Position numbers and translations under genes: made by a program. The notes beneath the pieces were generated by a model. The model was not told the DNA's origin, made no database searches, and saw nothing but the letters and a program-made list of their open reading frames with translations. A stretch of 64,000 nucleotides of DNA, from assembly GCA_944387405.1 (NCBI GenBank), contig CALXET010000003.1, positions 36,962 to 100,961 on the forward strand, read 5' to 3'. Positions 3,301-56,754 of the stretch are shown in pieces (within the stretch, counting starts at the first letter, position 1; each line of letters starts with the position of its first letter). Source of the stretch: an uncultured Clostridia bacterium (GTDB lineage: Bacteria > Bacillota > Clostridia > TANB77 > CAG-508).

Positions 3301-4713
3301 TCCATTTTTTATTTTTATAATACCAACTTCAGTAATCTTCTCTGTTCTAAATGAAATTCCTGTAGTTTCTAAGTCAAGCACACAATAAACAGAATCAATA
3401 GGTTGTTCTTTAGCATAAAAAACACTTGGATCTTTATCAGGTACAAAATATGCCTCTACACCATATAATACTTTTAAATCTGGATTAGCTTTTCCTAAAA
3501 ATTTATGCGCATCTGGAAAGCTTTGTACAACGCCATGATCAGTAATTGCAATAGATTTCCAGCCCCAACTTACAGCTCTTTTTAATAAGTCTGCACATGC
3601 AGTTACTGCATCCATTTGACTCATTTGTGTATGCATATGAAGTTCAACTCTTTTTTCATCTGCATTATCCATTCTCTTTTTCTTAGGGTTTCCTGCTGTT
3701 TCTATAATTGTATTTGCCATTACAGTAATTTCTTTTGCAAAATTATCATAAGATGCATTTCCATCTAGCTTTAAGCCTTTTGCAGATTGTATTCTTTTCA
3801 TTGTATCTTTAAACTTTGCTTTTTCAACAAAAGCTTTACAAGTTATAGTGCTTGTTCCATCATAAAGATTGAACATAATAATTACTTTATCATTTTTTAT
3901 CTCTCTTGAATCTGAAGATATTACTTCACCTTCTATACATACTTTCACAGTATCTGGTGAAATATCTATTATTTTTGTAAGCGGATTTCTTAAAGTAGCA
4001 TTTCTACCATATATTAATGGAGAATTTTCTTCTGCAATTTGTTTTTGTAAATCTTCCATTTTTGGAACATTTGCATATTCCCCTGATTTTACATTTAGAG
4101 CTGCTTCTCTTTCTTCTACTTTTCTTCTATCTTCTTTCATTGCTTCAGCTCTAGCTTCCTTAGCTTGTCTTTCTAGCTCCATAAAAGCTTGTTTTTCTTC
4201 ATTTTTAAGATATTCTTCATATTTTTCCATATCTTCTTTTGTAACTTTATCTACATATTTTACTTTATATTTTTTGTTATATAAATTTGTAATTAAATGT
4301 TCTAATCCTTTATCAAACCTTTTTGAGCGTAAAAAATCAGCCCCTTTTACTTTAAGTTCGATATCTATATCATCTCCATCTATCACTAAACTACTGTTAG
4401 TTAAAATAGCTTTTGTAAGAGGCTCTTTTTTGGACATATATTTAGTAAGTTTTTCCCAATCTTCTAAAACAGTATTTTCTATTTTAGCATCATCATTATA
4501 TTTAATATTTAAAATTGCTTTATTTACAGCAAATTTATTTACTAGGAAGTTCTGAAAACTTTCTAGTTCATCTACATTAATCTGCTTTCCACTAGTTAAA
4601 TCAATCTCTAATTTATTACTTTTTTTAAATAGATTTATATTTGTTATATCTGCATCTTGCATACTATTTACTTCTGAATAATCATTAAATACTTCTTTAA
4701 CTTGTTTTTGCAT
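328..4713 (-). CDS. polC: DNA polymerase III alpha subunit, Gram-positive PolC type
   Basis: 1461 aa. PHP motif (VELHMHTQMS, AITDHG), inserted DEDDh exonuclease (VLDLETTG), GSRGSVGSS, CxxC zinc finger, PDIDLNF. Confidence 0.99.
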   Translation of the reverse strand: MQKQVKEVFNDYSEVNSMQDADITNINLFKKSNKLEIDLTSGKQINVDELESFQNFLVNKFAVNKAILNIKYNDDAKIENTVLEDWEKLTKYMSKKEPLTKAILTNSSLVIDGDDIDIELKVKGADFLRSKRFDKGLEHLITNLYNKKYKVKYVDKVTKEDMEKYEEYLKNEEKQAFMELERQAKEARAEAMKEDRRKVEEREAALNVKSGEYANVPKMEDLQKQIAEENSPLIYGRNATLRNPLTKIIDISPDTVKVCIEGEVISSDSREIKNDKVIIMFNLYDGTSTITCKAFVEKAKFKDTMKRIQSAKGLKLDGNASYDNFAKEITVMANTIIETAGNPKKKRMDNADEKRVELHMHTQMSQMDAVTACADLLKRAVSWGWKSIAITDHGVVQSFPDAHKFLGKANPDLKVLYGVEAYFVPDKDPSVFYAKEQPIDSVYCVLDLETTGISFRTEKITEVGIIKIKNGEVIDEFECFVNPEKPIPPEVVEVTHITDNMVKDAETIDKVIPKIIDFIGDSILVAHNADFDIGFLKYNFAEYGYSLENTYIDTLRLAKVIFPEFKKYKLGIIASNLNIEVEVAHRALDDVKTLVAIFNIMLEKIKEKGGKIINDIDILFGNDKDSYKKLPSYHAIILAKDYVGLKNLYKLVSFSHLHYFYKKPRILKSLFEKYREGLILGSACEAGELYQAIEKGKSDEEIEEIAKYYDYLEIQPIGNNDFLVRNGTVPDHEALRDINRKIVALGEKLNKLVVATCDVHFMDPQDEIYRRILEAGQGYADADIQAPLYLRTTEEMLDEFAYLGPEKAKEVVITNTNKIADMCDKISPISGEKCPPHIEGCEQTIKDIAYSKAHELYGDPLPELVETRLKKELDSIISNGFSVMYIIAQKLVWKSNEDGYIVGSRGSVGSSFVANMTGITEVNSLPAHYRCPNCKYSDFTDYGVKNGFDLPDKKCPKCGTDLAKDGMDIPFETFLGFNGDKEPDIDLNFSGEYQAKAHKYTEVIFGKGTTFKAGTVGTIADKTAYGYVKKYYEERHIPVSSAEVERISVGCTGIKRTTGQHPGGIIVVPKGREIYEFTPVQHPADDPNSDIITTHFDYHSIDQNLLKLDILGHDDPTMIRMLFDLTGIDPTKVPLDDKETMSIFSSTDALGVTPEQIHSQVGTFGVPEFGTKFVRGMLVDTKPTTFGELISISGLSHGTDVWLNNAQELINQGIVTLSEAIGCRDDIMVYLMKKGLEPNHAFKIMETVRKGKALKDPEKWAEYVKIMKEHDVPEWYIKSCEKIKYMFPKAHAAAYVTNAFRIAWFKVHEPKAYYTAFYSIRADEFDSDIMIHGKEKVINKMKEIDMQGNSATTKDKNMYAILELVLEMYERGIKFLPIDLYKSDSKKFIMEEDGIRPPLNSIPGLGTVAAESIVKAREEEKFMCIDDIQQRGKVGKSVIELLKAAGCLEGMTQSNQMSLFV

Positions 4714-4736
4714 TTTCCTTTTTTTGCTCCTTTTAG

Positions 4737-5315
4737 CTAATTGTTATTTTCTTCTCCAGTTCCTAATTTTTCTTTTATATCATTAAATACTTTATCTACA
4801 TTTTTTATTGAATCTATATATATATGTTTTTCTAAAAGATTTTTAGAAGCTGTTTTAATATATATAGTTCCAATTCCAAATATTTTTTCAAATCTCGTTT
4901 GATTATATGATATTTCTTTAACATCTGTATAACTAATTTCTATTTTTTTCTCTTTGAAAAATACTATTTTTTTATAAACAAATTTTGTCATGTAAAATGT
5001 ACATTTTGAATGATTTATCTTATATTTATCATACAAAAACACAAATATCTCTGCTAAAATTACTAATATAATAAAAATGATTGATTCTAGCAAAAATTCT
5101 GAAGCTGTAAGTATTAGTACTGCACAAACAATAATTGCAATAAATAATGATTCTAAATGTTGCGAAAGTTGATACCCAAATACAAATTTTCTTTTAAATT
5201 CATATACTTTAACTCTATCAGCTCTTTTTTCTTCTTCTTTTAAAACTTTATTCATACAGTTATTACACAATTCTCCTTCTTTTTTTAGTTCAGCTCCACA
5301 CATTTTACATCTCAT
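4737..5315 (-). CDS. Membrane protein: N-terminal zinc ribbon, two TM helices, bacterial PH-like domain
   Basis: CKMCG..LCNNC at the N terminus, two hydrophobic segments, and a C-terminal 'EISYTDVKEISYNQTRFEKIFGIGTIYIKTA' typical of bPH_2. Start set at ATG 5315 after the AGAGGG RBS. Confidence 0.65.
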   Translation of the reverse strand: MRCKMCGAELKKEGELCNNCMNKVLKEEEKRADRVKVYEFKRKFVFGYQLSQHLESLFIAIIVCAVLILTASEFLLESIIFIILVILAEIFVFLYDKYKINHSKCTFYMTKFVYKKIVFFKEKKIEISYTDVKEISYNQTRFEKIFGIGTIYIKTASKNLLEKHIYIDSIKNVDKVFNDIKEKLGTGEENNN

Positions 5316-5349: not shown

Positions 5350-6609
5350 TTAAAATAATCTCAGTATATCATTATATGATACATATATTGATAGTAAGAT
5401 TAATAATGAAAATCCTATTAATTGAACTGTTATTTCAAACTTTTCACTTAATGGTTTACGTCTAATAGCTTCTATTAAAAGTAATAATATTTTTCCACCA
5501 TCTAAAGCTGGAATTGGTAATAGATTCGTAACACCAAGTGATAGAGAAATAACTGCAAGTAGATATATAAATTCTGCAAAAGTCGTTGTAGATGCTACTG
5601 TTGATGATATTCCAACAGGTCCCATTAGTTGATCTGTAGAAACATTTCCTGTAAATAATTCTTTTACATTATATAATAATGAGCCTGAGAAATCTACAGT
5701 AGTCCAAAAGCCATAATATAAATTATTTTTTATATTTTTATCTGCTACTTTAAACATTGTTCCTATATAATATTCTTTGTTTTCGATAGGAATAATATCA
5801 AAATCAACTTTTTCACCATTTCTATCTACTGTTAATTTAACATTTCCTTCAGAATTTTGTATTAATTCTATTGCTCTTTTGTAATCTTTATTTACTTCTT
5901 CACCATTTACACTAAAAATAATATCACCTGACTGTAATCCTACCTTTTCTGCTGGTGAGTTTTCATATATTGATTCTATTTTACATGATGCAGTATTTTC
6001 ATTACCAAGATATATACCTATAGTTTTAGTTATCTTTTCTGTAGGTTTAAAATCATATGAAATCTCTTTTCCATCACGTAAAACTAAAACATTAATACTT
6101 TCTCCATTACTTTTCTCAACTTCTTCAGTTATATCTGAATTTAATCTAATCTTTTTATTATTAATTTCTAATATTTTGTCTCCAGGCATTATTCCAACAT
6201 TATCTGCAGCATATGTATCTACTACTTCTGCTACTGTTGTTGAATAAAAATTTCCAATAGAACAAGCAAGTGCAAAAAATACTAAAAGTCCAAAAACTAT
6301 ATTTACTGTTGCTCCTGCTGCAACTATTAAAATTCTTTTTGGAATAGAAAGTTTACTAAAAGATCCATTTTCATCTGATCTTTCATCTTCTCCTTCCATG
6401 CTAACAAATCCACCTAATGGAAAAGCTCTTATGCAATACCTTGTTTCTTTTCTTTGTTTTGAATATAATACTTTTCCAAATCCTAATGAAAATTCATTAA
6501 CTTTTACTTTAAATAATTTTGCAACTAAAAAATGTCCTGCTTCATGTATCAATATTAGAAAACCCAATAAGAAAATAATTTTAATAGCATTTATTATAAA
6601 AGAAATCAA
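5350..6609 (-). CDS. rseP: RIP metalloprotease RseP (M50B) with two PDZ domains
   Basis: HEAGH zinc motif, NLLPIPALDGG motif, PDZ repeats; canonical position after cdsA. Confidence 0.96.
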   Translation of the reverse strand: MISFIINAIKIIFLLGFLILIHEAGHFLVAKLFKVKVNEFSLGFGKVLYSKQRKETRYCIRAFPLGGFVSMEGEDERSDENGSFSKLSIPKRILIVAAGATVNIVFGLLVFFALACSIGNFYSTTVAEVVDTYAADNVGIMPGDKILEINNKKIRLNSDITEEVEKSNGESINVLVLRDGKEISYDFKPTEKITKTIGIYLGNENTASCKIESIYENSPAEKVGLQSGDIIFSVNGEEVNKDYKRAIELIQNSEGNVKLTVDRNGEKVDFDIIPIENKEYYIGTMFKVADKNIKNNLYYGFWTTVDFSGSLLYNVKELFTGNVSTDQLMGPVGISSTVASTTTFAEFIYLLAVISLSLGVTNLLPIPALDGGKILLLLIEAIRRKPLSEKFEITVQLIGFSLLILLSIYVSYNDILRLF

Positions 6610-6622
6610 TATTTCCTCCTAT

Positions 6623-7438
6623 TTACATCATTAATATATTAATTAAATAATAAGCAAATGGTGCTGCAAAAATAACACTATCTATTCTATCTATCATTCC
6701 TCCATGACCAGGAATTAAATTACTATAATCTTTTATTCCAACATATCTCTTTATTGCAGATGCTGAAAAATCACCAATTTGTCCTAATATTGCAAGAACA
6801 AATCCTATTATTCCTGCTACTATATAATTAATATTCATTGCAAAAACATTATTTAATAATATTGTATATAATATGACTAGTAAAACTCCACCTACTGTTC
6901 CTGCTACACAGCCCTCTATAGATTTATTTGGGCTAATTTTACTAAATTTGTGTTTTCCAAATTTGCTACCAATACAAAAAGCAAATATATCACAGCCCCA
7001 GGTTGCTAAGAATATATACCATATGTAAAACTTTCCAACGTTTTCTAATCCATAAAGTAATGCTAAAAATGCTATAAATCCTATAATATAAATATATCCA
7101 AATAAACTAACTACTATATCAGAAATGTTTGTCTTCATTTCTCTTACAATAACTATTGTAAATAAAACTGCAACTATTGTTACTAAGCCAAGTCCTAAAA
7201 ACTTAGTAATCATATCTATAGGGATTAAATGTATTCCAGCAATTGAAGATGCTAAAATATATCCTAACCATTTAACTGGTTTTATATCTTTCTTCTCCAT
7301 AGCATTCATATATTCATGAATACTAATTATAGCAATAACTGCTAAAAAAACATCTAATATATACTTATTTCCAAAAACTAATAATAAAGCAATTATTGGC
7401 AGTCCAAAAACACCTGACAATATTCTTTTTATTCCCAT
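6623..7438 (-). CDS. cdsA: Phosphatidate cytidylyltransferase
   Basis: SPNKSIEG and GDFSASAIKRYVGIKDYSNLIPGHGGMIDRIDS motifs. Confidence 0.96.
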   Translation of the reverse strand: MGIKRILSGVFGLPIIALLLVFGNKYILDVFLAVIAIISIHEYMNAMEKKDIKPVKWLGYILASSIAGIHLIPIDMITKFLGLGLVTIVAVLFTIVIVREMKTNISDIVVSLFGYIYIIGFIAFLALLYGLENVGKFYIWYIFLATWGCDIFAFCIGSKFGKHKFSKISPNKSIEGCVAGTVGGVLLVILYTILLNNVFAMNINYIVAGIIGFVLAILGQIGDFSASAIKRYVGIKDYSNLIPGHGGMIDRIDSVIFAAPFAYYLINILMM

Positions 7439-42541: not shown

Positions 42542-44850
<2,309 letters not shown>

Positions 44851-44892
44851 AATTTATATTCTCCTTTTAAATCATTTTTATATTTTATAAAT

Positions 44893-44952
44893 TTAAAAGT
44901 TAATTTGCCATCGTTTTTCTATATATGTTTGATAAAATAATTTTATTTTCAT
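44893..44952 (-). other. Candidate leader peptide upstream of trpS (19 aa, one Trp codon)
   Basis: TTGTAA-17-TATAAT promoter, GGAGG RBS, MKIKLFYQTYIEKRWQINF*. Confidence 0.5.
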
Positions 44953-45050
44953 AATTTTCCTCCGATTATAGACTATTATATTATACTGTATTTTACCTTA
45001 TTTTACAATAATTATTGATTATTTACATAAAATTATATTAATAATATAAA

Positions 45051-45074
45051 AGCTGTCCCCTCATGGGGCCAGCT
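45051..45074 (-). terminator. GC-rich hairpin containing the stop codon of the 45061-45288 gene
   Basis: AGCTGTCCCC-TCAT-GGGGCCAGCT, followed by TTTT on the minus strand. Confidence 0.65.
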
Positions 45075-45288
45075 CGTGATGCGATTTGAAGTACTCAGTA
45101 ATTGCTTCTCTGAGATTCAGCGCTTTTTCATCGCTGTCGAAAAACTCATCATATAGTAAATTCTGAAAAGCTCTTCCAATAACTCTAAGCTGAGTCTGCT
45201 TAACAAGCCCGTCAGGACTTACTATATACTCAGTTTTCCGATTTCCACCGCACTCTGTTGATACTTCTAAAATTTCCACTTTTGCCAT
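45061..45288 (-). CDS. Higher-GC orphan protein, 75 aa
   Basis: TTGACA-17-TATAAT promoter, AGGAGG RBS, ATG at 45288. Confidence 0.65.
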   Translation of the reverse strand: MAKVEILEVSTECGGNRKTEYIVSPDGLVKQTQLRVIGRAFQNLLYDEFFDSDEKALNLREAITEYFKSHHELAP

Positions 45289-45513
45289 AATACCCTCCTG
45301 ACTTCCCAGCACAAGAACGCTGGTACTTATTAAAACATAGTTTCACTGCATCGCCGATTATTATATAAAAATTGTTGAAATATGTCAAATAAGCATATGT
45401 GATTTACATAATTTGTATAAATTTCTTTTCTTTGATATAATAAAAATATACAAATTAACTAAAGAGTGTGTTTTCTCACTCAAGATTCAAAAAGAGAGAA
45501 AGGAAGATTCAAG

Positions 45514-45966
45514 ATGAAAAAGGAAGAGTTACTACGGAGGATTGATGATGGAAAAATCTCTTTTGAAGAGATTAAATCAGAGAATTATGATTTTGATGTA
45601 ATTCTCCAAATGTTTAATTTCTTTATGGAGAACGAAGCAATGCAACTTGCAACACCAGAACAGCAAAAATACCTGCTGTCAAATATGGGGTGCTACAATG
45701 CCAAACTTTATAGGCAACTTGCTCCGTACATTAAGCCTGAAATCTGGGCTGATAGCAAATTTGCATATATGATTTTGGCAAGATGTGCACCCGATTTTTC
45801 AAGTTCGGATGAATATATCCGCGAATTCCAAAAATACGTGCCGCTTATAAAGAAGGCGGAAGTCGAAAATAATGCTATGTTAGGTGTATGCTCCGGTGAT
45901 TCCGAAGAGGAAGTCCGTGCACATCAAGTACTCAAACTTCTAAAAATAACAACCTCTCAAAACTAG
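45514..45966 (+). CDS. Higher-GC orphan protein, 150 aa
   Basis: TTGTAT-17-TATAAT promoter, AAGGA RBS, ATG at 45514, AGGGCC/GGCCCT terminator at the stop. Confidence 0.65.
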   Translation: MKKEELLRRIDDGKISFEEIKSENYDFDVILQMFNFFMENEAMQLATPEQQKYLLSNMGCYNAKLYRQLAPYIKPEIWADSKFAYMILARCAPDFSSSDEYIREFQKYVPLIKKAEVENNAMLGVCSGDSEEEVRAHQVLKLLKITTSQN

Positions 45967-46085
45967 GGCCATAAGGGCCCTTTTTTATTTATATATTTTA
46001 TACTCTCTATCTATAATTACTGCCCCTTTACCATTTATGTTAACTATGATATAATATTATTATTAATATATAAGGAGGTGGCATT

Positions 46086-46268
46086 ATGAGCGAGCATCAA
46101 AAGCCTGAAGGCTGCATGTGCATGGGAAACTGTGCAAAGTGTAAATGCGGCAGAAACACATCGTCCACCGATGACAAAAAAGATGCAAGCACTAAACCGT
46201 ACTTTGGCGACAGCCCTGACGATTTAGAAGCTAAGACAACTGAGTTCATTGATAAGCACTTTAAATAA
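46086..46268 (+). CDS. Cys-rich miniprotein, 60 aa
   Basis: TTTACC-17-TATAAT promoter, AAGGAGGT RBS, CxCxxxCxxCxC cluster, GTCACGCGA/TCGCGTGGC terminator. Confidence 0.7.
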   Translation: MSEHQKPEGCMCMGNCAKCKCGRNTSSTDDKKDASTKPYFGDSPDDLEAKTTEFIDKHFK

Positions 46269-46388
46269 GTGCACTTAATTTATGAACCTACTTTTTTGGG
46301 TCACGCGATAACCAATTTCGCGTGGCTTTTTTATTTAAAAAAGCTTTGTACTATATTAGTACAAAGCTTTTACTTAATTTTTATGCTA

Positions 46389-47774
46389 CTAGAATTCTAC
46401 TTTTTCTGAAATCCATTTTTCTAAATCTTCTATTTTTACTCTAACTTGCTCCATTGTATCTCTATCTCTAATTGTTACTGCATTATCTTCTAAAGTATCA
46501 AAATCTACTGTAATACAATATGGAGTACCTATCTCATCTTCTCTTCTATAACGTTTTCCTATACTTCCTGCTTCATCATAATCACACATAAACTTCTTAG
46601 ATAAGTTTTCATATACTTCTTCTGCTTTATCACTTAATTTTTTAGATAATGGAAGTACAGCAACTTTATATGGAGCTAAAGCCGGATGTAAATGTAATAC
46701 TGTTCTTGTATCTCCACCATCTAAAGCTTCTTCTTCATAACTATCACATAAAAATGCAAGTGTTACTCTATCAGCTCCTACTGAAGGTTCAATACAATAT
46801 GGAATATATCTTTCATTTGTTTCTGGATCTAAGTATGTCATATCTTCTTTTGAATGTTCCATATGTTGTTTTAAGTCAAAATCTGTTCTATCAGCAATTC
46901 CCCAAAGTTCACCCCATCCAAATGGGAATGCATATTCTATATCTGTTGTTGCATTACTATAATGAGATAGCTCTTCTTTAGAATGATCTCTTAGTCTTAA
47001 ATTATTTTCTGTCATTCCCAGAGTTAATAACCAGTTCTTACAAAATTCTTTCCAATATTTATGCCACTTTAGGTCTTCTCCTGGTTTGCAGAAAAATTCA
47101 AGTTCCATTTGTTCAAACTCACGTGTTCTAAAAGTAAAGTTTCCTGGAGTTATTTCATTTCTAAAAGATTTTCCTATTTGTGCTATACCCATTGGTAATT
47201 TCTTTCTTGTAGTTCTCATAACATTTTTAAAGTTAACAAAAATACCTTGAGCTGTTTCTGGTCTTAAATAAATCTCCGCTGTTTTATCTTCTGTAACACC
47301 TTGAAATGTTTTAAACATTAAATTAAATTTTCTTATATCTGTAAAATTTGTTTTTCCGCAATTTGGACATGGTACATTATTTTCTTTTATAAAATTAACT
47401 AATTGTTCATCTGTCATACCATCTGCTATCATATCTCTTCCTTGCTCATGAGCCCACTCTTCAATTAATTTATCAGCTCTATGTCTTGTTTTACATTCCT
47501 TGCAATCTATTAGTGGATCACTAAAACCTCCAACATGTCCTGAAGCAACCCAAGTTTCTGGATTCATTAATATTGCCGCATCAAGCCCTACATTATATTT
47601 GCACTCTTGTACAAATTTTTTCATCCATAGTTTTTTTACATTGTTCTTAAGTTCAACACCTAAAGGACCATAGTCCCAAGTATTTGCAAGTCCTCCATAA
47701 ATTTCTGAACCTGGATAAATAAATCCTCTTGATTTGCATAAAGAAACCATTTTTTCCATTGAATCAACTGCCAT
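46389..47774 (-). CDS. glyS: Glycine--tRNA ligase, homodimeric class IIa type
   Basis: [54 protein letters not shown]. Confidence 0.97.
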
Positions 47775-47804
47775 AAAAATTCCTCCTTTTCACTTCTGCT
47801 AGGA

Positions 47805-48006
47805 ATCAAAAAAACTTTCATACCTAGCTTTTAATTTAGCTAGGGACGAAAGTTTATATTCCGCGGTTCCACCCTATTTGGTTTTTAAAACCCACCTTCA
47901 TTTTTAAAATTGCTCCAAAGCTCCATCCTATACCTTTATGGCTAAGCTTTCACCTTACCTTAGCTCTCTAAACATAAATAAATATATTCCCTCTTTATCA
48001 ACGCAA
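47805..48006 (-). promoter_or_regulatory. T-box riboswitch, Gly specifier (GGA), lacking Stem II
   Basis: K-turn TTGC-GTT-GA...GA-GCAA, specifier GGA at 47922-47924, T-box AGGGTGGAACCGCG, terminator with U-tract. Closely resembles the B. subtilis glyQS leader architecture. Confidence 0.93.
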
Positions 48007-48106
48007 TATTTTATTTTGGCTTTTAAATATTTTAATACGTTTTATTTTCTTTGTCAACCCAAAAATTATATTATGCTTTTTAAAATTAATAAATACGAAC
48101 ACAACC

Positions 48107-48353
48107 TGTGGATAACTTTTAAACTACCGCAAATTTTAGTCTCTTTTTTATTTCGTTTTGTTTGGTTTAAATATAGTATAAATATGTAAACTTGCATGAA
48201 TAAAGCATTACGCGGCATTTTAAAATATTATGTAACTTAATAATTCACTGTAAACTAATTCTTGTCAACCTGTGGATAATGTGGATAACTCTGTGAATAA
48301 CTTATTTATTCGACAAAATTTAACCTAATTTATGCACAGGTACCTGTGCATAT
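48107..48353. promoter_or_regulatory. DnaA-box cluster
   Basis: TGTGGATAA at 48107, 48271 and 48280; TGTGAATAA at 48292; TTATGCACA at 48330, within a 22-bp perfect palindrome (48331-48352). Confidence 0.75.
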
Positions 48354-48603
48354 TTATTTTAGTTTACGAAAAATAGATTTTATTATTTTATTATGTTTAT
48401 AGTATCTTTGTTTGCTTAATCTACTTCTATTCCCTAATTTTTCTTATATTTTATTGATTTTTTCCTATAAATTTCTCTTTTTGTAAATTATCTAAGCTTT
48501 TTCCACTTTTTTCTTCCTAAAATATAATTTATTAATTACATTATATATTTTTTTAATAGATATTTAATATTAAATATTAAAATAAAATTTTAGGAGGTTT
48601 TAT

Positions 48604-49395
48604 ATGAAAAAATATGTTCTTATTACTGTAATACTTTGTCTTATCGCATTATTTTCTGCTATAAATATTGCAAGTGCTAATTTAACAGTAACAGATGCAC
48701 AAACTGCTCAAGCTGTAAACTCACTTATTACATATAAATCATCTGAATTTTTATCTGTTTTAGACAGTACTGACGAAATAAAATCAATATCTGTAGAAAA
48801 TGATGAATTAAACAATACTGACTTTTATAAAGTAGAAACAAATAATTATTTATTAAAATTAGACACAGATGATAAAAACGTTACTGGAATTTATGCAAAA
48901 GCATCTGATACTAATTTTACAAAAGAGTCTACTGAATCTGAAGCTAGAGAATTTATAAATACTAAATACGAACAATTAAATCTACCTGAAGATTATGATT
49001 TAGTATATCTTGAAAAAATAGATGAATATACTTGGGAAGCTGATTTTCAAAAAAAATATGGTGACGTCTACAATATGTATGAAGCAGTAAAAGTATTCTT
49101 CACACCAGAAAATAATGAAATTATAGCACTTACTGTATTTAATGAACCATATGAAAATAATGAAGAAACTAAAGTTACAACTAAAGAAGCAAAAGAAATT
49201 GTAAGTAATGAATTAAATATTGATTCAAAAATAATATCTGAAGAATTAACAATAATAAAACCAAATAATTATTTTGAAAATTCTAATGATAAAGACCTTC
49301 ATAAAGCTTGGGTTTTAACAACAGAAGATAATGAAAGTATTTATGTTGATGCTATAAATGGCGATGTTATAGGAGGTGACTGTATAAATGAGTAA
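48604..49395 (+). CDS. Secreted protein with PepSY-like modules
   Basis: Signal peptide ending ASA; VTTKEAKEIV...KAWVL...IYVDAINGDVIG. Confidence 0.7.
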   Translation: MKKYVLITVILCLIALFSAINIASANLTVTDAQTAQAVNSLITYKSSEFLSVLDSTDEIKSISVENDELNNTDFYKVETNNYLLKLDTDDKNVTGIYAKASDTNFTKESTESEAREFINTKYEQLNLPEDYDLVYLEKIDEYTWEADFQKKYGDVYNMYEAVKVFFTPENNEIIALTVFNEPYENNEETKVTTKEAKEIVSNELNIDSKIISEELTIIKPNNYFENSNDKDLHKAWVLTTEDNESIYVDAINGDVIGGDCINE

Positions 49396-49996
49396 AAAGA
49401 TAGTTTCAATTTTTTTAGTAATATTATTATTTATAACTATATTCTCTACTACAGCAAATGCTGCCGCTTCTGCTAAAGTTTTTGCTAGCAGTAAAAGTGC
49501 ATACTATAATGATTGTGCTGTATATGCTAAATATGGTTTAGAAGATTTAGGATATTCAGTTAGCACGGTTACTGGTGGTATAACAAAATCTTCAATGCTA
49601 GACTGGATAGGAAACACTGGAAATGGATATGCTTTTTATGTTCACACTTTTGGTGGAGATGGATATTTTAATGATTACTCAGGTAAATCAATTGATGCTG
49701 ATGATATATCTGGTAATTGGGATTTAGTATATATAGATTCATCTTATAGTGCTAAAACTAATGAACTTGCAAGAGCTTTTCATACAGTTGGATATTCTGA
49801 TAGATGTTTCCTAGGTTGGTATAATCCTGTTACTACAGCAAATTCAAATTCTTTTAATTATTATTTCTGGACAGAATATGTAACTCATGCAACAATTAGA
49901 TCTGCTGCACTTGCTGCCGCATCAAGAGTTCCTGGTGATGGTACTACTCCTATAAGATTTTATGGAGATACTTCTTATGATGGATCAGCTCGTTAA
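49388..49996 (+). CDS. Secreted protein, possible caspase/gingipain-like alpha/beta fold
   Basis: Signal peptide ending ANA; FYVHTFGG, DLVYIDSSYSA, RCFLGWYNPV and RFYGD pattern. Confidence 0.6.
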   Translation: MSKKIVSIFLVILLFITIFSTTANAAASAKVFASSKSAYYNDCAVYAKYGLEDLGYSVSTVTGGITKSSMLDWIGNTGNGYAFYVHTFGGDGYFNDYSGKSIDADDISGNWDLVYIDSSYSAKTNELARAFHTVGYSDRCFLGWYNPVTTANSNSFNYYFWTEYVTHATIRSAALAAASRVPGDGTTPIRFYGDTSYDGSAR

Positions 49997-50026
49997 AAAA
50001 GACTATATCCATATAGGTATAGTCTT

Positions 50027-51481
50027 TTATTCTTTCTCTTCAACAGTATAAGTTCCTTCTAAAATAACTTCTCCTGTCTCTACATCTATTTTTATATTCT
50101 TATTTTCATTATATATAATCTCCCAATAAAATTTCACTTCATAATTATTCCTATATAAAGTATTATTTAATTCATCATAATGAATTTCATTTGTATTATA
50201 ATAATTTATATTTTTCTCTATCTGTCCCATATTTATTCTTATATTTTCTATAGAATTTACAGTATCATATTCTTTTAATATATCTATAGCTTTATCTTTT
50301 GTAATATTTACATTCTTTTCTTGTTTACCATAAGAAATATTTAATATGCTAATAATCTTGTTAGATGTAATATCATATTCAACATAAATACTATTATAAA
50401 TATCATCTTCTGTTAGAGCATATAAAACATCTAGAATCTTAGAATCTAATTTCTCGCTTTCATAATAACTTATTACTTTATATTCTTTGTTTAAATTTAA
50501 TAATTTATAACATTCATCAATTTCTTTTAAAATATCATCTGTAGATAATTCCTTTTGGCTAACATCTCTTTTTTCTGTTAAATCAGAATAATCTACAAGT
50601 ATACCATTTTCAGCATCAATATCTATTCTAAACTTATTATCTAAATATAATGTCCAATAAGTTTTATTATAAAGTCCATCTTTTATAAGTTTAATATCTT
50701 CATCATTATAATTTTCAGTTATCTTTAATGCTTTTAAATAACCCTTAATATTATCGCTAGCTTCTTCCCTAGTAATATTTACAGTAGACTCATCGACTTT
50801 CTTGTCTCTTTCTTCTAAAGTATAAGTCTCAGGATTCTTAACAAAATGTTCATAAACTTTATATGATGCATATACTATTCCTGTAAGCATTGTAACTGAT
50901 ATGATAATAACAATAATAGAAGTAAGCTTCTTAACCTTTTTATATCTGCTTATCAAGTCTGGATATTCTTTTTCTAATACCTTTTTCAATGATTTCTTAG
51001 CTCTATAAATTAATTGTTTTATTTCATCTTCACTTTTATCTAATACTTTAGCAGCGTCTTTATATGAACGTCCTTTTAATTTTACTAATATAATAGCTTC
51101 TCTTTGAAGTTCTGATATTTTACTCAAAGCTTTATAAAACTCATCAGCCGATTCTCTATTTTCAACTAATTCTTCTGGATTTACTACTTTCTCTTCATAT
51201 AACTCTGTTATATTCTCATTGAATTTATTATTTCTTCTTTTTATTTTAGAAGAATATGACATTAATATATTTCTTGCTATTGCTAGTACTAAATTTTTAA
51301 GTTCTTTTTCCTCTTTAGGTTTCTTATCTTCTATCATATTATATAATGTAAGAAAACTATCTTGCATAATTTCTTCAGATATTGTTTCATTTCTAGTCTT
51401 ATAGTAAATGTAATTAAAAACTTTTTTGTTATATTTATTGTAAAAATTATTAAAATTTGTTTCTTCTATTACTTTTCCCAC
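50027..51481 (-). CDS. ECF sigma factor fused to a TM helix and an extracellular PepSY-like domain
   Basis: Region 2 (FNNFYNKY..SEEIMQDSFLTLY), region 4 (QREAIIL..GRSYKDAAKVL..IKQLIYRAKKSL), TM LTSIIVIIISVTMLTGIVYASY, then about 275 aa. Confidence 0.85.
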   Translation of the reverse strand: MGKVIEETNFNNFYNKYNKKVFNYIYYKTRNETISEEIMQDSFLTLYNMIEDKKPKEEKELKNLVLAIARNILMSYSSKIKRRNNKFNENITELYEEKVVNPEELVENRESADEFYKALSKISELQREAIILVKLKGRSYKDAAKVLDKSEDEIKQLIYRAKKSLKKVLEKEYPDLISRYKKVKKLTSIIVIIISVTMLTGIVYASYKVYEHFVKNPETYTLEERDKKVDESTVNITREEASDNIKGYLKALKITENYNDEDIKLIKDGLYNKTYWTLYLDNKFRIDIDAENGILVDYSDLTEKRDVSQKELSTDDILKEIDECYKLLNLNKEYKVISYYESEKLDSKILDVLYALTEDDIYNSIYVEYDITSNKIISILNISYGKQEKNVNITKDKAIDILKEYDTVNSIENIRINMGQIEKNINYYNTNEIHYDELNNTLYRNNYEVKFYWEIIYNENKNIKIDVETGEVILEGTYTVEEKE

Positions 51482-51608
51482 TTTTCTCCCCTTCTAAAAA
51501 CATATTTCTTACATATTTTAATAAAATTCTTAAAAAATTTCAAATTTTTGCGTAACTTTTTTTCGAGTTATAAAATATATATTATATAAGACATAATTCG
51601 GAGGAATT

Positions 51609-52292
51609 ATGAAAAAAGTTTTACTATCTTTTAAAAACTTATCAAACAGTAAAGATGTTTTTAATTTTATTACACTTAGGCATAATGAAGATATACATAT
51701 TGTTGGATTATCTGATAATTATATTGAAACTATGGCTTTATTATATAAGTATGTGCCTGATTTAATATTAATAGACTCTGAATCTTTTGCTGAAATTAAT
51801 TTGAATTTACTTACATATTTACCAACATTTTATATAGATGATAAATCAAAATTATTAAATGAATCAATTTATAATTCTATCTTTATTAAAATTTATAATA
51901 ATTTTGATCATTTATTTAGTAATTTTAAAACAGATCAAAAAAGTATAGTAACCAAAAAAATAGAAACAAAAATCATAAGACAACTTAAAGACTTAAATTT
52001 TAATTTTAAACAAGCTGGTACTAGATTCTTTTTAGAAACATTAATATTTGTTTATGAAAATAAAAATCCAAATATTTTAAATAATATTAGTAAAAACATT
52101 TATCCAAATGTATCTAATAAGTACCATACAAGTATTAGCAAAGTAAAATGGAATATAGAAAAATCAATATCATATATGTATAATTTTAACTTAAATAATT
52201 ATCCTGGACTTTTAGATAACTACTTGTCTTTTGATTTCACACAAAAACCAACAACAAAAGAATTAATAGTTCTTTTAAATAAATTATTGTAA
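51609..52292 (+). CDS. Spo0A C-terminal DNA-binding-domain protein with degenerate receiver domain
   Basis: LKDLNFNFKQAGTRFF, SKNIYPNVSNKYHTSISKVKWNI and KPTTKELI match Spo0A_C; N-terminal PDLILID. Confidence 0.75.
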   Translation: MKKVLLSFKNLSNSKDVFNFITLRHNEDIHIVGLSDNYIETMALLYKYVPDLILIDSESFAEINLNLLTYLPTFYIDDKSKLLNESIYNSIFIKIYNNFDHLFSNFKTDQKSIVTKKIETKIIRQLKDLNFNFKQAGTRFFLETLIFVYENKNPNILNNISKNIYPNVSNKYHTSISKVKWNIEKSISYMYNFNLNNYPGLLDNYLSFDFTQKPTTKELIVLLNKLL

Positions 52293-52387
52293 TTCTCTTT
52301 TGTTATGCAATACTCTAGTCCTGAATTCCTTTCCAAAAGAATTCGTATACAATTTTTTACTAGAGTATTGCATAACAAAGGAGAATT
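52291..52387. repeat. 97-bp element with 29-bp terminal inverted repeats (one mismatch)
   Basis: AATTCTCTTTTGTTATGCAATACTCTAGT ... ACTAGAGTATTGCATAACAAAGGAGAATT. Confidence 0.8.
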
Positions 52388-52400
52388 ATTTTAATACACA

Positions 52401-52433
52401 AAAAAGATGTAGATTATTAAGCTACATCTTTTT
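52401..52433 (-). terminator. greA terminator
   Basis: AAAAAGATGTAG/CTACATCTTTTT. Confidence 0.75.
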
Positions 52434-52454
52434 TATATTATTCTTTTTATTATA

Positions 52455-52937
52455 TTATTGCTTTTTTATTGCTAATATTTTAAATTGCATTGTTCCTGCA
52501 GGAGCTTCTACTGTAACTACTTGATTTTTCTTTGATCCTAACAAAGCAGCTCCTATAGGAGATTCATTAGAAATTTTATTTTGAGATAAATCTACTTCTG
52601 TTGATCCAACTATTGTATATTCAACATCTTCATCAAATTCCATATCATGTACTTTTACAACGTTTCCTATTTGAACTGTTTTTGTATCAACTTCAGATTC
52701 ATCTATTATCTTTGCATATCTTAATTTATTTTCTAATTCAGCTATTTTTGTTTCATTTGAAGCTTGTGCATTTTTAGCTTCATCATACTCTGAATTCTCA
52801 GATAAATCACCAAAACCTAAAGCAACTCTAATACGTTCTGCTATTTCAGCTCTTTTTTCTGTTTTAAGATATTCAACTTCCTTTTCTAAATTATCATATC
52901 CTTCTTGAGTTAATAATATTTCTTTGTTCTCCTCCAT
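52455..52937 (-). CDS. greA: Transcription elongation factor GreA
   Basis: [31 protein letters not shown]. Confidence 0.98.
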
Positions 52938-52954
52938 ATTATCGTCTCCTCTCC

Positions 52955-54115
52955 TTAAGTTTGATTTTTTACTAACGGTACTATATTACGATTATTATAT
53001 TTTTTTGTCAAGTCTTTTGGTAGTTTTTCTTTAAGCTTTTTTATCCTTTTTACTTTCAAAAACTCTCTTCCTCTAATTATTCCATTATTTCCTAAAAAGC
53101 ATTTTATTTCTACACTATCAAATTTCAGCTTTCTTTCTATTTCACTTTGTATTAAATTATTTTCTATAATAATAGCTTCATACAATAAAATAGGATTTAC
53201 ATCTTCTAATAATTTTACTATTTTATTATATTTTTGTGGAAGATATATTAAATAATCAGTAATATTTATTCCTTCAAAAAAATTAGAATATATTTTTAAA
53301 TTATTTCTTATATTAAATATAATCGCTTTTCTAGGCATGGCACACTGACTAAATTCATCTAATAAAAAATCAAGATTTATTATTATATTTGAATTTAATA
53401 AGGTCTTATCTTTATTTGTCGTTACATTTAATATAATTCCATATTCTTTTTTTAATTCTTTTCCTAATCTATCAAATTGCCTTATATTATCTGTAATTAA
53501 ATTTATAATTTTGCATTTTTTTGCTAATTCTATAATGCCAGAAACTCTTATATTATTTTTATATTTAATTAGAATAGATATTTCGTACTTTTCCATATCC
53601 ATTCTTTGAATATTAGATATATATTCTATACTTTTATATAATAAAGATTCATATAAAAATTTTCCTTCTATAATATTAATATTGTTATTTATAAAAATTT
53701 TTTTTAATTTCTCATCATTAAATAAATTATTAGATAAAATTACATTTTTAAAATTATATTTTTTGATTTTCTTAATATTTCTTAATAATCTTAGATTTCT
53801 ATTTTTCTCTCTTCTTATATTTATTTTACTAATTAATCTATTTTTAATTTTATTATTTTTTACCAATTTTATATTTTTATTTTTTTCATTAATTATATAT
53901 AAAATATTTAATTTTAATCCATCATCATCTAAATCTATTATTTTTTTTATATTTTTATTAAACATTTTCATATAATAAAAAATACATTTGTATATGATTT
54001 CATTTAATTTTATAAATTTAAATTTATCTATTTTTAAAATTAATTTATTTTTTAATTTATATATTTTTTTAAATCTATTTAAATCTGTAATTTCATCAAC
54101 AAATAACAAATGCAA
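52955..54115 (-). CDS. Very AT-rich hypothetical protein with a degenerate Rossmann-like C-terminal half
   Basis: 386 aa; [19 protein letters not shown]-like strands; GAGGTG RBS. Confidence 0.6.
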
Positions 54116-54168
54116 TCACCTCTCATATTTTATATCTAATATATGAGAGGTATTATTTTTTATTCGTA

Positions 54169-55926
54169 TTATTTTTTATCTACTTTGATATGAATTTCAT
54201 CTAATTGTTTTTTAGTAACTTCTCCTGGAGCTCCCATTAACAAATCTTGTGCTTTACTATTCATTGGGAAAGCACATACTTCTCTAATACTTTCTTCTCC
54301 TGTAAGTAGCATTATCATTCTATCTACACCAGGAGCGATTCCAGCATGTGGTGGAGCACCATATTGAAATGCATTAAATAATGCAGAAAACTTTTTATCA
54401 ATTACTTCTTTACTATATCCTGCTATTTCAAATGCTTTTATCATAATTTCTGGATCATGATTTCTAACAGCTCCAGATGAAAGTTCAATACCATTACATA
54501 CTATATCATATTGATATGCCAAAATATCTAATGGATTTTTAGTATTTAAAGCTTCTAATCCACCTTGTGGCATTGAAAATGGGTTATGTCCAAATTCTAT
54601 TTTTCCATTATCAACTCTTTCATACATTGGGAAATCAACTATCCAGCAGAATTTAAATACATTTTCATCTATTAATCCTAATCTTCTTCCAAGTTCAGCT
54701 CTTATCTCACCTGCTAATTTTTCAACTATTCCTTCATGTTCTGCTATAAAGAATATTGCATCACCAGCATTTGTATTTGTCCTAGTTAGCATTTCTTCTC
54801 TTTCTTTATCTCCAATAAATTTAGCAATTGGTCCTTGAAGAGTTCTATCTTCATTTACTTTAAGCCAAGCTAAACCTTTCGCTTTACATTCATTTATAGC
54901 ATAGTCTGTCATTCCTTCAAATAAAGTTCTAGTTTGCAAAGCACCATCTTTTACAGATATTATTCTTACTATTTTATTTTTAAATACTTTTAAATCAACT
55001 CTTTCAAATATATCTGTAACATCTTGTATGATTAGTGGATTTCTTAAGTCAGGTTTATCTGTTCCATATTTTAATAAAGCTTCCTTATAAGGTATTCTTG
55101 GGAAAGGATATTCTGCTATCTTTTTATCAGAAAATTCTTTAAATGTGTTATATAACACTTCTTCCATAACAGAAAAAACATCTTCTTGATTTGCAAAAGC
55201 CATTTCCATATCAAGTTGATAAAACTCTCCTGGTGATCTATCTGCTCTTGCATCTTCATCTCTAAAGCAAGGTGCTATTTGAAAATATTTATCTATTCCA
55301 GATACCATTAATAATTGTTTAAATTGTTGTGGCGCTTGTGGAAGTGCATAAAACTTTCCTGGATAAATTCTACTTGGTACTAAATAATCCCTTGCACCTT
55401 CTGGTGATGAACTTGTAAGTATTGGTGTTTGAACCTCTAAAAATCCTCTTTTTATCATTTCATTTCTTAAAAATTGTATTACTTTTGCTCTTAATATAAT
55501 ATTATCTCTACATTTTGGATTTCTTAAATCTAAATATCTATATTGTAATCTTAAATCTTCTCTTACATCTCTACTAGATTGTATATCAAAAGGTAACATT
55601 TTGGTTCTTTTCCCTAAAATTTCATAACTTTCGATAAATAATTCAACTGTACCTGTTTCTATATTTCTATTTACAGTCTCTTCATCTCTTAATCTAACTG
55701 TACCTTCAAAAGATACTGTTGATTCTATAGGAATTCTTGAAACTTCATCAACTAATTTTTCATTTCCTGATGCAACTACTTGTGTAATACCATATTGATC
55801 TCTTAGATCAATAAAAATTACTCCTCCTAGATCTCTTATTGTCTCAATCCATCCTGCAAGCTTAATTTTTTCTCCAACGTGTTTTTCTCTTAATTCTCCA
55901 CACGTGTACGTTCTGTACTCCTTCAT
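54169..55926 (-). CDS. aspS: Aspartate--tRNA ligase (possibly Asp/Asn non-discriminating)
   Basis: RDLGGVIFIDLRD, RLQYRYLDLR, EGARDYLVPSR, LPQAPQQFKQLLM, GAPPHAGIAPGVDR. Confidence 0.97.
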   Translation of the reverse strand: MKEYRTYTCGELREKHVGEKIKLAGWIETIRDLGGVIFIDLRDQYGITQVVASGNEKLVDEVSRIPIESTVSFEGTVRLRDEETVNRNIETGTVELFIESYEILGKRTKMLPFDIQSSRDVREDLRLQYRYLDLRNPKCRDNIILRAKVIQFLRNEMIKRGFLEVQTPILTSSSPEGARDYLVPSRIYPGKFYALPQAPQQFKQLLMVSGIDKYFQIAPCFRDEDARADRSPGEFYQLDMEMAFANQEDVFSVMEEVLYNTFKEFSDKKIAEYPFPRIPYKEALLKYGTDKPDLRNPLIIQDVTDIFERVDLKVFKNKIVRIISVKDGALQTRTLFEGMTDYAINECKAKGLAWLKVNEDRTLQGPIAKFIGDKEREEMLTRTNTNAGDAIFFIAEHEGIVEKLAGEIRAELGRRLGLIDENVFKFCWIVDFPMYERVDNGKIEFGHNPFSMPQGGLEALNTKNPLDILAYQYDIVCNGIELSSGAVRNHDPEIMIKAFEIAGYSKEVIDKKFSALFNAFQYGAPPHAGIAPGVDRMIMLLTGEESIREVCAFPMNSKAQDLLMGAPGEVTKKQLDEIHIKVDKK

Positions 55927-55960
55927 CTTTTTTTCTCTCCTTTTTTATTTATTCGGGACA

Positions 55961-56158
55961 AAAAAACAAAAATCTTTCATCCCTATAAAAGGGACGAAAG
56001 ACTAACTTCCGCGGTACCACCCTAATTGGAAATAAATTCCCACTTTTTAAGGTTTGCTCCAATGTGTTTCATAATAGTATTATTTAAAACGCTTTCAGCC
56101 TATGGCGTTTTTTCTCTAAAAAATAATATTATTCTATTACTTTCCATCTTCATCGCAA
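55961..56158 (-). promoter_or_regulatory. T-box riboswitch upstream of aspS; specifier position reads AAC (Asn)
   Basis: K-turn TTGC-GAT-GA/GA-GCAA, AGUA/GAA loop-E, T-box AGGGTGGTACCGCG at about 56010-56023, terminator with U-tract. Confidence 0.92.
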
Positions 56159-56262
56159 AATTTTAATTTATTAAAATAAAATAAATTAGCTAGTATTTTT
56201 CTAGCTAATTCAATATTTTAAACTATTTTTTCCATTCTGTCAAATTTTATACTAAAATTATA

Positions 56263-56754
56263 TTAAACATCTAAGAGATTATACTTAAATTCTAGTATTT
56301 TTTCATCTTCATCAACTTTTATATACATATCAAAATTTAACTTTTCATCTATTAAGCCTTTAATAAAAAATCTATCTAATATTATGATGTTTGATAATAA
56401 TTTTTCTGTAGAAAGCAGCTCATTAATATCTATCCATTCCGAAGAATTCTCTTCAAAATCTCTTGGAATACCTTTGTATTTCTTTGTTAAAAATATATCT
56501 AACATATAAATCCTATCTGGATATTCTACTTTCATTAAACCTTTTTTCACTATTTTATCTTTAAAAATAGTAATTCCAGTTTCTTCTTTCATCTCTCTTA
56601 TGCAAGTATCTATATTAGATTCATTTTCTTCTATTTTTCCTCCAGGAATCTCATAATATCCTGCTTTTTTATTTTTCTCTTTATATTTAGTAACTACTAC
56701 TTTATTATCTTCTATCAAAAAACATCTTACAGCATGTCTTACTTTCTTTTCCAT
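56263..56754 (-). CDS. NUDIX hydrolase
   Basis: Nudix box PGGKIEENESNIDTCIREMKEETG. Confidence 0.92.
   Translation of the reverse strand: MEKKVRHAVRCFLIEDNKVVVTKYKEKNKKAGYYEIPGGKIEENESNIDTCIREMKEETGITIFKDKIVKKGLMKVEYPDRIYMLDIFLTKKYKGIPRDFEENSSEWIDINELLSTEKLLSNIIILDRFFIKGLIDEKLNFDMYIKVDEDEKILEFKYNLLDV

Follow-up and report, generated by a model that had tools for sequence, protein, structure and literature searches.

A putative membrane-tethered extracytoplasmic function sigma factor of gut Clostridia encoded beside a secreted paralogue of its sensor domain and a protein of predicted caspase-type fold

We analyzed a cassette of four genes, named here A, B, S and R, on a stretch of 64,000 nucleotides from an uncultured Clostridia bacterium (contig CALXET010000003.1). 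This whole stretch, which has a G+C content of ~26%, is referred to as the window. Gene S encodes an extracytoplasmic function (ECF) sigma factor that is fused, through a transmembrane (TM) segment, to a large ectodomain. Genes A and B, which are convergent with S, encode two secreted proteins, and gene R, divergent from S, encodes a protein with a DNA-binding domain (coordinates are given in Table 1). The results presented below make it highly probable that these four genes form one signalling unit. A is a secreted protein paralogous to the whole sensor domain of S, and B is a protein of predicted caspase/CHAT-type fold in which both canonical catalytic residues have been replaced.

The sigma part of S is well defined. 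S scored 65.5 bits against TIGR02937 (ECF superfamily, cut-off 42.9), and Pfam placed Sigma70_r4_2 on residues 113-165 (E 6e-12) and Sigma70_r2 on residues 13-79 (E 5e-4), the latter match being under the Pfam cut-off in S and over it in relatives. The best NCBIfam subfamily was SigM, with 84.7 bits, which is under its cut-off of 148. S contains one hydrophobic segment (residues ~186-205), preceded on its N-side by the basic sequence RYKKVKK and followed by a C-terminal domain of 279 aa. Together, the open reading frame (ORF), TIGR02937, Pfam and the hydrophobic segment agree with the original prediction of an ECF sigma factor with one TM helix and a large ectodomain. The linker between sigma region 4 and the TM helix, EKEYPDLISRYKKVKK, carries a conserved YPDLxxRY and the basic KKVKK. 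Because this linker comprises only ~12-15 residues, S lacks an anti-sigma domain, and no Pfam match to such a domain was found between region 4 and the TM helix. Also as predicted, the genes next to S do not include a separate anti-sigma gene.

The outer end of the TM segment resembles a signal-peptide end. It terminates in G-x-x-Y-A in 18/18 species aligned, the Ala being invariant and the Gly and Tyr at least 90% conserved. In the window this end reads ...G-I-V-Y-A|S, which fits the -3/-1 pattern of signal peptidase I, and the same ...IVYA| is found at the signal-peptide ends of A homologues. In the related locus L023, moreover, the alignment of the hidden Markov model (HMM) of A runs from the A signal peptide onto the TM segment of S. 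The juxtamembrane stretch that follows is the best-conserved portion of the extracytoplasmic region, with residues K208, V209, Y210, F213, K215, T219, Y220 and T221 being invariant. Judged by these alignments, S is best described as an ECF sigma factor fused to a whole A-type pre-protein. The conserved stretch also includes an Asn-Pro pair at positions 216-217. Autoproteolysis of the SEAL type at N216-P217 was considered as a possibility, although the pair is confined to the window's subclade.

Secreted protein A matched no Pfam or NCBIfam family at E<=1, and neither A nor S gave a Pfam match to PF03413 (PepSY) at that threshold; relatives gave sub-threshold PF03413 matches only (E 3e-4 to 0.4). 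The AlphaFold model of A, built from 26 homologues (pLDDT 88.5), consists of three modules, each made up of a helix and four strands. Foldseek matched this model best to the C-terminal domain of YpeB (5boi, triple PepSY; E 3.5e-10, 236 columns), followed by the propeptides of vibriolysin MCP-02 (E 1.9e-5) and of an M36 protease (E 1.7e-4), which are of the FTP/PepSY type. In its predicted structure A carries a three-fold, YpeB-like PepSY fold, an assignment that rests on the model together with the sub-threshold matches in relatives. Thus, of the PepSY-like units proposed earlier for A and S, the triple PepSY fold is supported by the model of A, and Pfam recognizes them in neither protein; the peptide motifs quoted for these units are all present in the translations. 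A profile of the S ectodomain family (A5) gave nothing meaningful against PDB sequences.

The relationship between A and S became evident when their family profiles were compared using hhalign. Residues 41-257 of A aligned collinearly with residues 240-474 of S (probability 98%, E 2.5e-13, 213 columns). Because this alignment is collinear, A is a secreted paralogue of the entire S sensor domain and does not merely share repeats with it, which goes beyond the earlier claim that A shares units with the S ectodomain. The C-terminal tail of A, ...IGGDCINE, is conserved. The last PepSY module ends in ...DAxTGEIIGGD, which forms the C-terminus of free A and which, in relatives having A and B fused in one protein, directly precedes the caspase-like domain. 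Where A ends, its codons for Gly-Gly-Asp (GGTGGAGAT) double as a Shine-Dalgarno sequence for B, the ATG of which overlaps the last codons of A (49388-49395). Since Gly-Gly-Asp is also kept in the A-B fusions, which need no ribosome-binding site, it is constrained both as protein and as mRNA.

Secreted protein B likewise matched no Pfam or NCBIfam family at E<=1, and a comparison with PDB by sequence (A1) gave nothing meaningful. Its AlphaFold model, built from 44 homologues (pLDDT 89.9, pTM 0.83), matched SAVED-CHAT 8tl0 (E 1.5e-6) and caspases-3/6/7/8/9 (E ~1e-5) in Foldseek, with TM-scores of ~0.55-0.6. At the level of the model, this confirms a fold of the caspase/CHAT type (caspase-hemoglobinase, clan CD). 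The mature protein of ~175 residues is a very small domain, and the B-type domain is rare, with 210 clusters among 1.84 billion representatives (E<=1e-3). In an alignment of 50 homologues, the canonical His-Gly maps to Phe88-Gly89 of the window B and the canonical Cys to Ser119. The whole clade of 202-aa proteins has F/L/Y/I-Gly and S/A/G at these positions, and HG plus D[A/S]C are kept in 22 more distant genomes. The nearby H86 was rejected as the catalytic His, since the family alignment places the canonical His-Gly at F88-G89. Because both residues of the canonical dyad are replaced and the Cys position varies between S, A and G, B of the window is not a credible active enzyme as judged from its alignment. 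Hence, of the secreted protease-fold protein that had been proposed, the fold was recovered and the active protease was not.

Even so, B evolves more slowly than any other gene of the cassette: it is 62-72% identical to relatives, compared with 38-55% for A, 26-46% for S and 22-61% for R. A protein that lost its dyad and yet shows the strongest conservation in the cassette would act as a binding protein and not as an enzyme, and in these sequence features B bears the hallmarks of a pseudo-enzyme retained for binding. Outside the cassettes, a B-type ORF in a 3.6-Mb Vallitaleaceae genome (L011/L046, 7001-7675) begins with a sequence resembling the C-terminal part of A (YIVYVNALDGEILGG); it has retained HG/DAC, and there is no sigma gene within 5 kb of it. 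Possibly this ORF is an A-B fusion that is truncated or has a wrongly assigned start.

We then compared the cassette with homologous loci, which came from gut metagenomes and metagenome-assembled genomes (MAGs) only (humans, rabbits, ruminants); the closest public relative of the window is a circular 1.8-Mb MAG (L015, OZ006973.1). Loci were gathered in two ways, via the encoded proteins and via a scan with a B profile that covered one genome per species (40 loci), and they were classified using HMMs for A, B, the sigma domain, the S ectodomain and R. Loci are named window type when A and B are on the same strand and convergent with S, and R is divergent from S. This arrangement is present in 18 species-level genomes (L015-L032) as well as on metagenomic contigs, and the dyad of B is lost in all of them. 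One of these genomes (L020) has tandem S-type fusion genes (3321-4793 and 5399-6871), of 490 aa each, between B and R. Locus L014 has all four genes too, although its flanking genes differ.

Other loci show the same components in other combinations. In the split type (L012/L013 and L033), a sigma factor of ~181-186 aa is encoded together with a separate TM protein that has a short cytoplasmic N-terminus and an A-like ectodomain (matching A with E 1e-17 and residues 198-473 of S with E 5e-12), followed by A and B. In the fused type, found among L035-L054, A and B are joined in one secreted protein of 430-530 aa with an intact dyad, and usually a sigma/anti-sigma pair is located beside it, either divergent or upstream (L035-L039, L041, L043). 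Additional sigma-TM fusions, of 536-611 aa, accompany A and B in L034, L040 and L054; R is present in L034 as well, where the genes are ordered differently. An ECF sigma gene lies within 5 kb of the B-type domain in 30 of the 40 genome loci, and four of the ten others are cut by contig ends. The more distant sigma fusions P0049/P0050 (545 aa) were dropped, having an unrelated context without A or B. The neighbours of the split system in L012/L013 (1-14636) include Mob_Pre, TnpV, integrase, resolvase, ThsB_TIR and HEPN_AbiU2, and the system is followed by a second ECF sigma gene and a gene for a 356-aa TM protein. This mobile-element setting suggests horizontal spread of the module.

Together, fusion, fission, rearrangement and mobility rule out mere vertical synteny and tie A, B and the sigma factor functionally. 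It could be argued that the four genes are no functional unit and are neighbours only because a small and gene-dense genome was inherited vertically, and indeed the closest relatives share the surrounding genes (GreA, AspRS, GlyRS) too. However, the cassette persists when its flanks change (L014), when its genes are reordered (L034), when it is carried by a mobile element (L012) and when genes are fused or split; this view is largely refuted and we consider it very improbable. The predicted functional link between the sigma factor and A-B, with co-occurrence in relatives, is thus upheld by the 18 window-type species, by L014, L034 and L012/L033, and by the fusions.

The comparison also bears on whether A and B act on S or are mere outputs or neighbours of it. 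In the latter case S would sense another ligand, such as a cell-wall or host molecule or an outside protease, and the likeness of A to its ectodomain would reflect duplication of a PepSY scaffold. Genes adjoining ECF operons are commonly members of the regulon, and PepSY domains are present on many envelope proteins, for instance YpeB and SEAL-PepSY proteins (PMC10556640). Moreover, the fused-type loci associate A-B with a sigma factor whose anti-sigma ectodomain is unrelated to A: for L035-L044, hhalign gave a probability of 0.7% for A-likeness, and Pfam found only DUF4367 and a weak DUF4179 in these ectodomains. A-B can thus accompany a sigma factor without serving as its sensor. The idea that the ectodomain mimics the prodomain was therefore rejected as a general rule. 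For the window-type loci, however, several observations are not easily reconciled with A-B being an output only. The paralogy spans the whole ectodomain as well as the signal-peptide/TM end, A and B recur with a PepSY-bearing sigma or anti-sigma protein in independent arrangements, and the very strong conservation of B despite its missing catalytic residues points to binding partners that are conserved too. We therefore regard a role of A-B as mere output or neighbour as rather unlikely.

Gene R, which the original prediction had missed, travels with the cassette. It is present in 16 of the 18 window-type genomes (the contig of L016 ends, and none was seen in L031), in L014 and in L034; a 225-aa gene of L012 was examined as a candidate and is not R-like. 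Residues 124-224 of R match PF08769 (E 8.7e-11, 42.2 bits, cut-off 25). R scored 42.6 against the Spo0A equivalog TIGR02875, far under the cut-off of 200, and is therefore not Spo0A itself. No Response_reg match was found in R, the N-terminal receiver-like region of which is degenerate. The acidic pocket is absent from most R proteins, and the receiver looks intact only in L034 (alignment A4).

Promoter motifs were also compared. In the intergenic region between S and R, a sigma-70-like TTGAAA-17-TAAAAT (51543->51515) is directed toward S. In addition, this region contains a conserved GCGTAAC (51540-51546), which in sister species constitutes the -35 of an ECF-type GCAAC-N17-CGTTA directed toward R; in the sister clade of window-type genomes this motif is fixed at -48 to -51 from the R start. 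The form [GT][CTA]AAC-N16-18-CGT[TA]A of the motif gave no match in the whole 64-kb window. Relatives were scanned with G[CTA]AAC-N16/17-[CT]GT[AT][AT]A and with the looser AAC-N15-18-CGT. In the divergent intergenic regions of split and fused relatives (L035, L039, L012, L033), the same bipartite motif, as TG(C/T)AAC-N16/17-(T/C)GT(A/T)TA, is present in both orientations, upstream of both the sigma operon and A-B. The strict expression gave 19 matches in 939 kb, of which nine lie within ~75 nt upstream of system genes, although these matches are not independent since some genomes are close relatives. These motifs support the view that A-B was ancestrally in the regulon of the sigma factor. 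In none of the window-type loci was an ECF-type promoter found upstream of A. Transcription of the A-B operon by the released sigma factor is therefore a plausible claim as regards the ancestor and an unsupported one as regards the window genome; for the window-type lineage, a cascade from the sigma factor to R is, on the motif positions, a better-supported guess.

A different set of conserved elements precedes A-B. In the window, TTTTTCC-N11-CCTAAAA (48498-48522) overlaps a sigma-70-like TTTCCA-17-TATAAT, and across relatives the element reads TTTTTCC-N8/11-CCTAAA. The window also contains, at 48558-48578, a degenerate copy of the palindrome ATATAGCTATAT. In 14 of 20 window-type genomes (L017-L030, L032, L022, L026) the perfect palindrome, (A)TATAGCTATA(T), is present once per locus at -32 to -45 of A, and a -10-like TATAxT is located 12-16 nt upstream of the palindrome. 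It is a likely operator, with R as a possible binder.

These results also bear on a circuit based on an active protease, in which B would be the protease and A its PepSY inhibitor, the S ectodomain would sense the enzyme or be cut by it, and the sigma factor would transcribe A-B. B has a protease fold, A resembles PepSY propeptides, and split relatives with an intact dyad (L012, L035, L039) share an ECF-type promoter before the sigma gene and A-B; such a circuit is probably close to the ancestral one. For the window it is unlikely. Both dyad residues are replaced here and in the 202-aa clade, with S/A/G at the Cys position, the window-type genomes lack a sigma-type promoter upstream of A, and the region upstream of A-B carries a different conserved operator.

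From the established architecture, paralogy and folds, together with the loss of the dyad, the motif positions and the co-inheritance of genes that are fused or split in relatives, we infer the binding partners, the cleavage sites, the direction of regulation and the signal as follows. Tethering would hold the sigma factor of S at the membrane in an inactive state, and its release would most likely require two cuts. The first could occur at the signal-peptidase-type VYA| motif at the outer end of the TM segment, as in RsiV and RsiP, for which signal peptidase is the site-1 protease (PMC6066255, PMC8844934). The second could be made by the housekeeping RseP, as for IutY of Pseudomonas putida (ECF243), a sigma/anti-sigma hybrid activated by regulated proteolysis involving RseP (PMC8999054). 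A and B would be co-produced by translational coupling as a pair of PepSY prodomain and caspase-fold protein. B would bind PepSY modules in the way that a protease binds its prodomain, and would work as a binding protein (pseudo-protease) instead of as an enzyme. Because A is soluble and paralogous to the S ectodomain, it is expected to compete with that ectodomain for B. Whether the ectodomain is shielded or site 1 is exposed would then depend on the ratio of free B to A, or on an outside agent that takes A or B away. Ancestrally, the released sigma factor would have targeted its own operon and A-B. In the window type, the flow would probably run from the sigma factor to R and on to target genes, possibly including A-B through the palindromic operator. 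The whole chain of tethered S, two cuts, binding by B and gating of site 1 through competition by A seems possible to us, at somewhat less than an even chance. More specifically, we tentatively propose a pseudo-protease partner switch, in which B is shared by the S ectodomain and the decoy A, and the balance between them gates release by signal peptidase and RseP, followed by R. In this same tentative proposal, the switch would derive from a prodomain-caspase protease that was originally a product of the sigma regulon.

Alternatively, S might work without regulated proteolysis, either by recruiting RNA polymerase while tethered (ToxR/CadC-like) or through a constitutive cut at VYA, in which case S would simply be a pre-pro-sigma factor that also yields a second soluble A-like protein. 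No anti-sigma domain is present, so that nothing except its location masks the sigma factor, and the TM segment of S resembles a genuine A-type signal peptide. Against this, IutY, the one experimentally characterised hybrid, needs regulated intramembrane proteolysis (PMC8999054), and the conservation of the juxtamembrane stretch, the highest in the extracytoplasmic region, suggests a gated site. We consider activity of S without regulated proteolysis quite unlikely.

Several points weigh against the proposed chain of events. First, His86 and Ser118 are conserved inside the 202-aa clade and, on that sequence evidence, might form a new catalytic pair in B (in the L014 branch, the His86 position is Cys). 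Second, the VYA motif could be a relic of signal-peptide ancestry instead of a cleavage site in use, and if cleavage at VYA were constitutive there would be no gating. Third, the window has no recognisable sigma-type promoter, and only the -35-like GCGTAAC is left upstream of R. Finally, as the anti-sigma ectodomains of the fused type are not A-like, the decoy logic would hold only for the window-type and L012/L033-type loci.

An RseP-type protease is indeed encoded in the window, as had been pointed out, and is the sole candidate within it for intramembrane cleavage of S. It is located in a housekeeping uppS-cdsA-rseP-polC cluster, 43 kb from the cassette, and is not a cassette gene; as a housekeeping copy it does not constitute specific support for the proposed circuit. 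The operon of two secreted proteins convergent with S, and the hairpin separating them, were found as predicted. The inverted repeat between B and S (AAAAGACTATA-N10-TATAGTCTTTT) is a candidate bidirectional terminator on the basis of its sequence, and this hairpin, in a 30-nt spacer, is present in the window's subclade only. In L018, L019, L021, L023-L025, L027, L029 and L030, B and S are separated by 0-4 nt. Since this spacing leaves no room for a terminator, convergent read-through or antisense effects may matter in these genomes.

The region between the GlyRS gene (46389-47774) and A contains further elements. A T-box leader (47839-48010, minus strand; 89.6 bits, E 5e-20) lies upstream of the GlyRS gene. 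A scan of window positions 44000-56500 at Rfam gathering thresholds gave no match; the T-box was missed by this default scan because its score is just under the gathering score of 93. On the T-box/GlyRS side there is a promoter-like TTGACA-17-TAAAAT (48057->48029). The three perfect DnaA boxes (TTATCCACA) of the 64-kb window lie in this intergenic region at 48107, 48271 and 48280 (minus strand), in a cluster (48107-48338) that adds one-mismatch sites at 48292 and 48330. In 18 of 20 related genomes, perfect boxes have almost the same location relative to A (-300 to -500). Because the cumulative GC skew has no turn here, the cluster looks like a conserved non-origin cluster and not like oriC. 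The DnaA boxes are closely followed, midway along the intergenic region, by a terminator-like hairpin (TATGCACAGGTACCTGTGCATA) with a T-run after it (48331-48352, plus strand), and no gene is obviously terminated by this hairpin. On the other side of the cassette, an ORF for a Lys/Asn/Ile-rich protein of 386 aa (52955-54115, minus strand), with no Pfam or NCBIfam match, is located between GreA and AspRS, and L001 and L003 have an unannotated gene of 420-426 aa at the same place.

Table 1. Positions of the cassette genes, their parts and associated elements in the window
Feature	Position	Strand	Description	Basis
A	48604-49395	+	263 aa; signal peptide ...NIASA|N; three modules of predicted PepSY fold	ORF
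B	49388-49996	+	202 aa; signal peptide; gene overlaps A by 8 nt	ORF
S	50027-51481	-	484 aa; ECF sigma, TM segment and ectodomain	ORF
S residues 1-~172	50966..51481	-	ECF regions 2 and 4	Pfam, TIGR02937
S residues ~173-205	50867..50965	-	cytoplasmic linker and TM helix	alignments
S residues 206-484	50030..50866	-	juxtamembrane SYKVYEHFVKNPETYT and triple PepSY-like ectodomain	hhalign vs A
R	51609-52292	+	227 aa; Spo0A_C-type DNA-binding; divergent from S	
RseP/RasP-type site-2 protease	5350-6609	-	419 aa; Peptidase_M50 and PDZ	
Inverted repeat	49997-50028	.	13 pairs; between the convergent B and S stops	
S-R divergent intergenic region	51482..51608	.	sigma-70-like and ECF -35-like sites	
Conserved region upstream of A-B	48498..48578	+	TTTTTCC element, degenerate palindrome	

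To our knowledge, sigma/anti-sigma hybrids have barely been studied: IutY is the only one that has been dissected, and we know of none from Firmicutes with a PepSY sensor. In full-text literature searches, no publication was found that connects a pair of PepSY and caspase-fold proteins with an ECF sigma factor. The cassette is compact and its intermediates are traceable (split sigma/anti-sigma, fused prodomain-protease, active versus dead dyad), and it provides two protein families without a database model, a minimal secreted caspase-fold domain and a divergent triple-PepSY protein. PepSY, long suspected to be a regulator of extracellular enzymes, thereby gains a concrete signalling context in abundant uncultured gut Clostridia. 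If true, the decoy/pseudo-enzyme logic would be a new design principle of envelope signalling, undescribed for bacterial sigma signalling; if it is wrong, the cassette still contains a well-defined new type of ECF sensor.

Parts of the cassette have counterparts in known systems. RsiV-SigV and RsiP-SigP of Bacillus and Clostridioides also control an ECF sigma factor through a single-pass protein, which is cut at an A-x-A-type site-1 at the outer TM end, gated by the ligand that the ectodomain binds, and then by RasP at site-2 (PMC6066255, PMC8844934, PMC9044953). In those systems, however, the sigma factor and its anti-sigma factor are two distinct proteins, lysozyme or beta-lactam/PBP signals serve as ligands and the ectodomains are unrelated to PepSY, whereas for S cleavage at VYA is proposed from the sequence alone. 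The SEAL element of RsgI, a Firmicute anti-sigma factor, is juxtamembrane, and its cleavage precedes that by RasP. The published remark that comes nearest to the present cassette is that RsgI-like proteins frequently have their SEAL domains joined to PepSY domains (PMC10556640), and Asn-Pro 216-217 of S resembles the SEAL N|P site. SigI, the partner of RsgI, is not an ECF sigma factor, though, the Asn-Pro of S occurs in the window's subclade only, and no RsgI SEAL structure was among the Foldseek matches of the A model.

YpeB, which acts with SleB in Bacillus spores, has an N-terminal anchor and three PepSY domains, is the best structural match to A, and partners and stabilises a secreted protein with a hydrolase fold. 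It differs in having no sigma domain and in its partner, SleB being a lytic transglycosylase and not a caspase-fold protein, and sequence similarity is undetectable. The FTP/PepSY propeptides of M4 (vibriolysin MCP-02) and M36 (Aspergillus Mep) proteases precede a secreted protease and stay bound to it after processing, an arrangement that matches the distant A-B fusions. Here, in contrast, the catalytic domain has a predicted caspase (clan CD) fold, and in the window genome it is split off and its dyad is lost. With clan CD proteins (caspases, CHAT) B shares the modelled fold, and in distant B homologues the expected strand ends bear His-Gly and Asp-Ala/Ser-Cys; B differs from these in being very small and secreted, in its replaced dyad and in having no sequence match to Pfam or PDB families.

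The closest counterparts of S itself are IutY and the actinobacterial groups ECF48/52/53 (e.g. SCO4117), which, like S, combine an ECF sigma factor, a TM segment and a large extracytoplasmic sensor in one polypeptide. These proteins keep an anti-sigma or zinc-finger domain between the sigma domain and the TM segment, where S has just its short linker, and their ectodomains are FecR-like or carbohydrate-binding, whereas that of S would consist of three PepSY modules. S, moreover, comes from Clostridia, and its cassette adds a secreted paralogue of the ectodomain and a putative pseudo-caspase. The cassette would thus represent a new wiring of sigma/anti-sigma hybrid signalling, operating through the mechanism proposed above.

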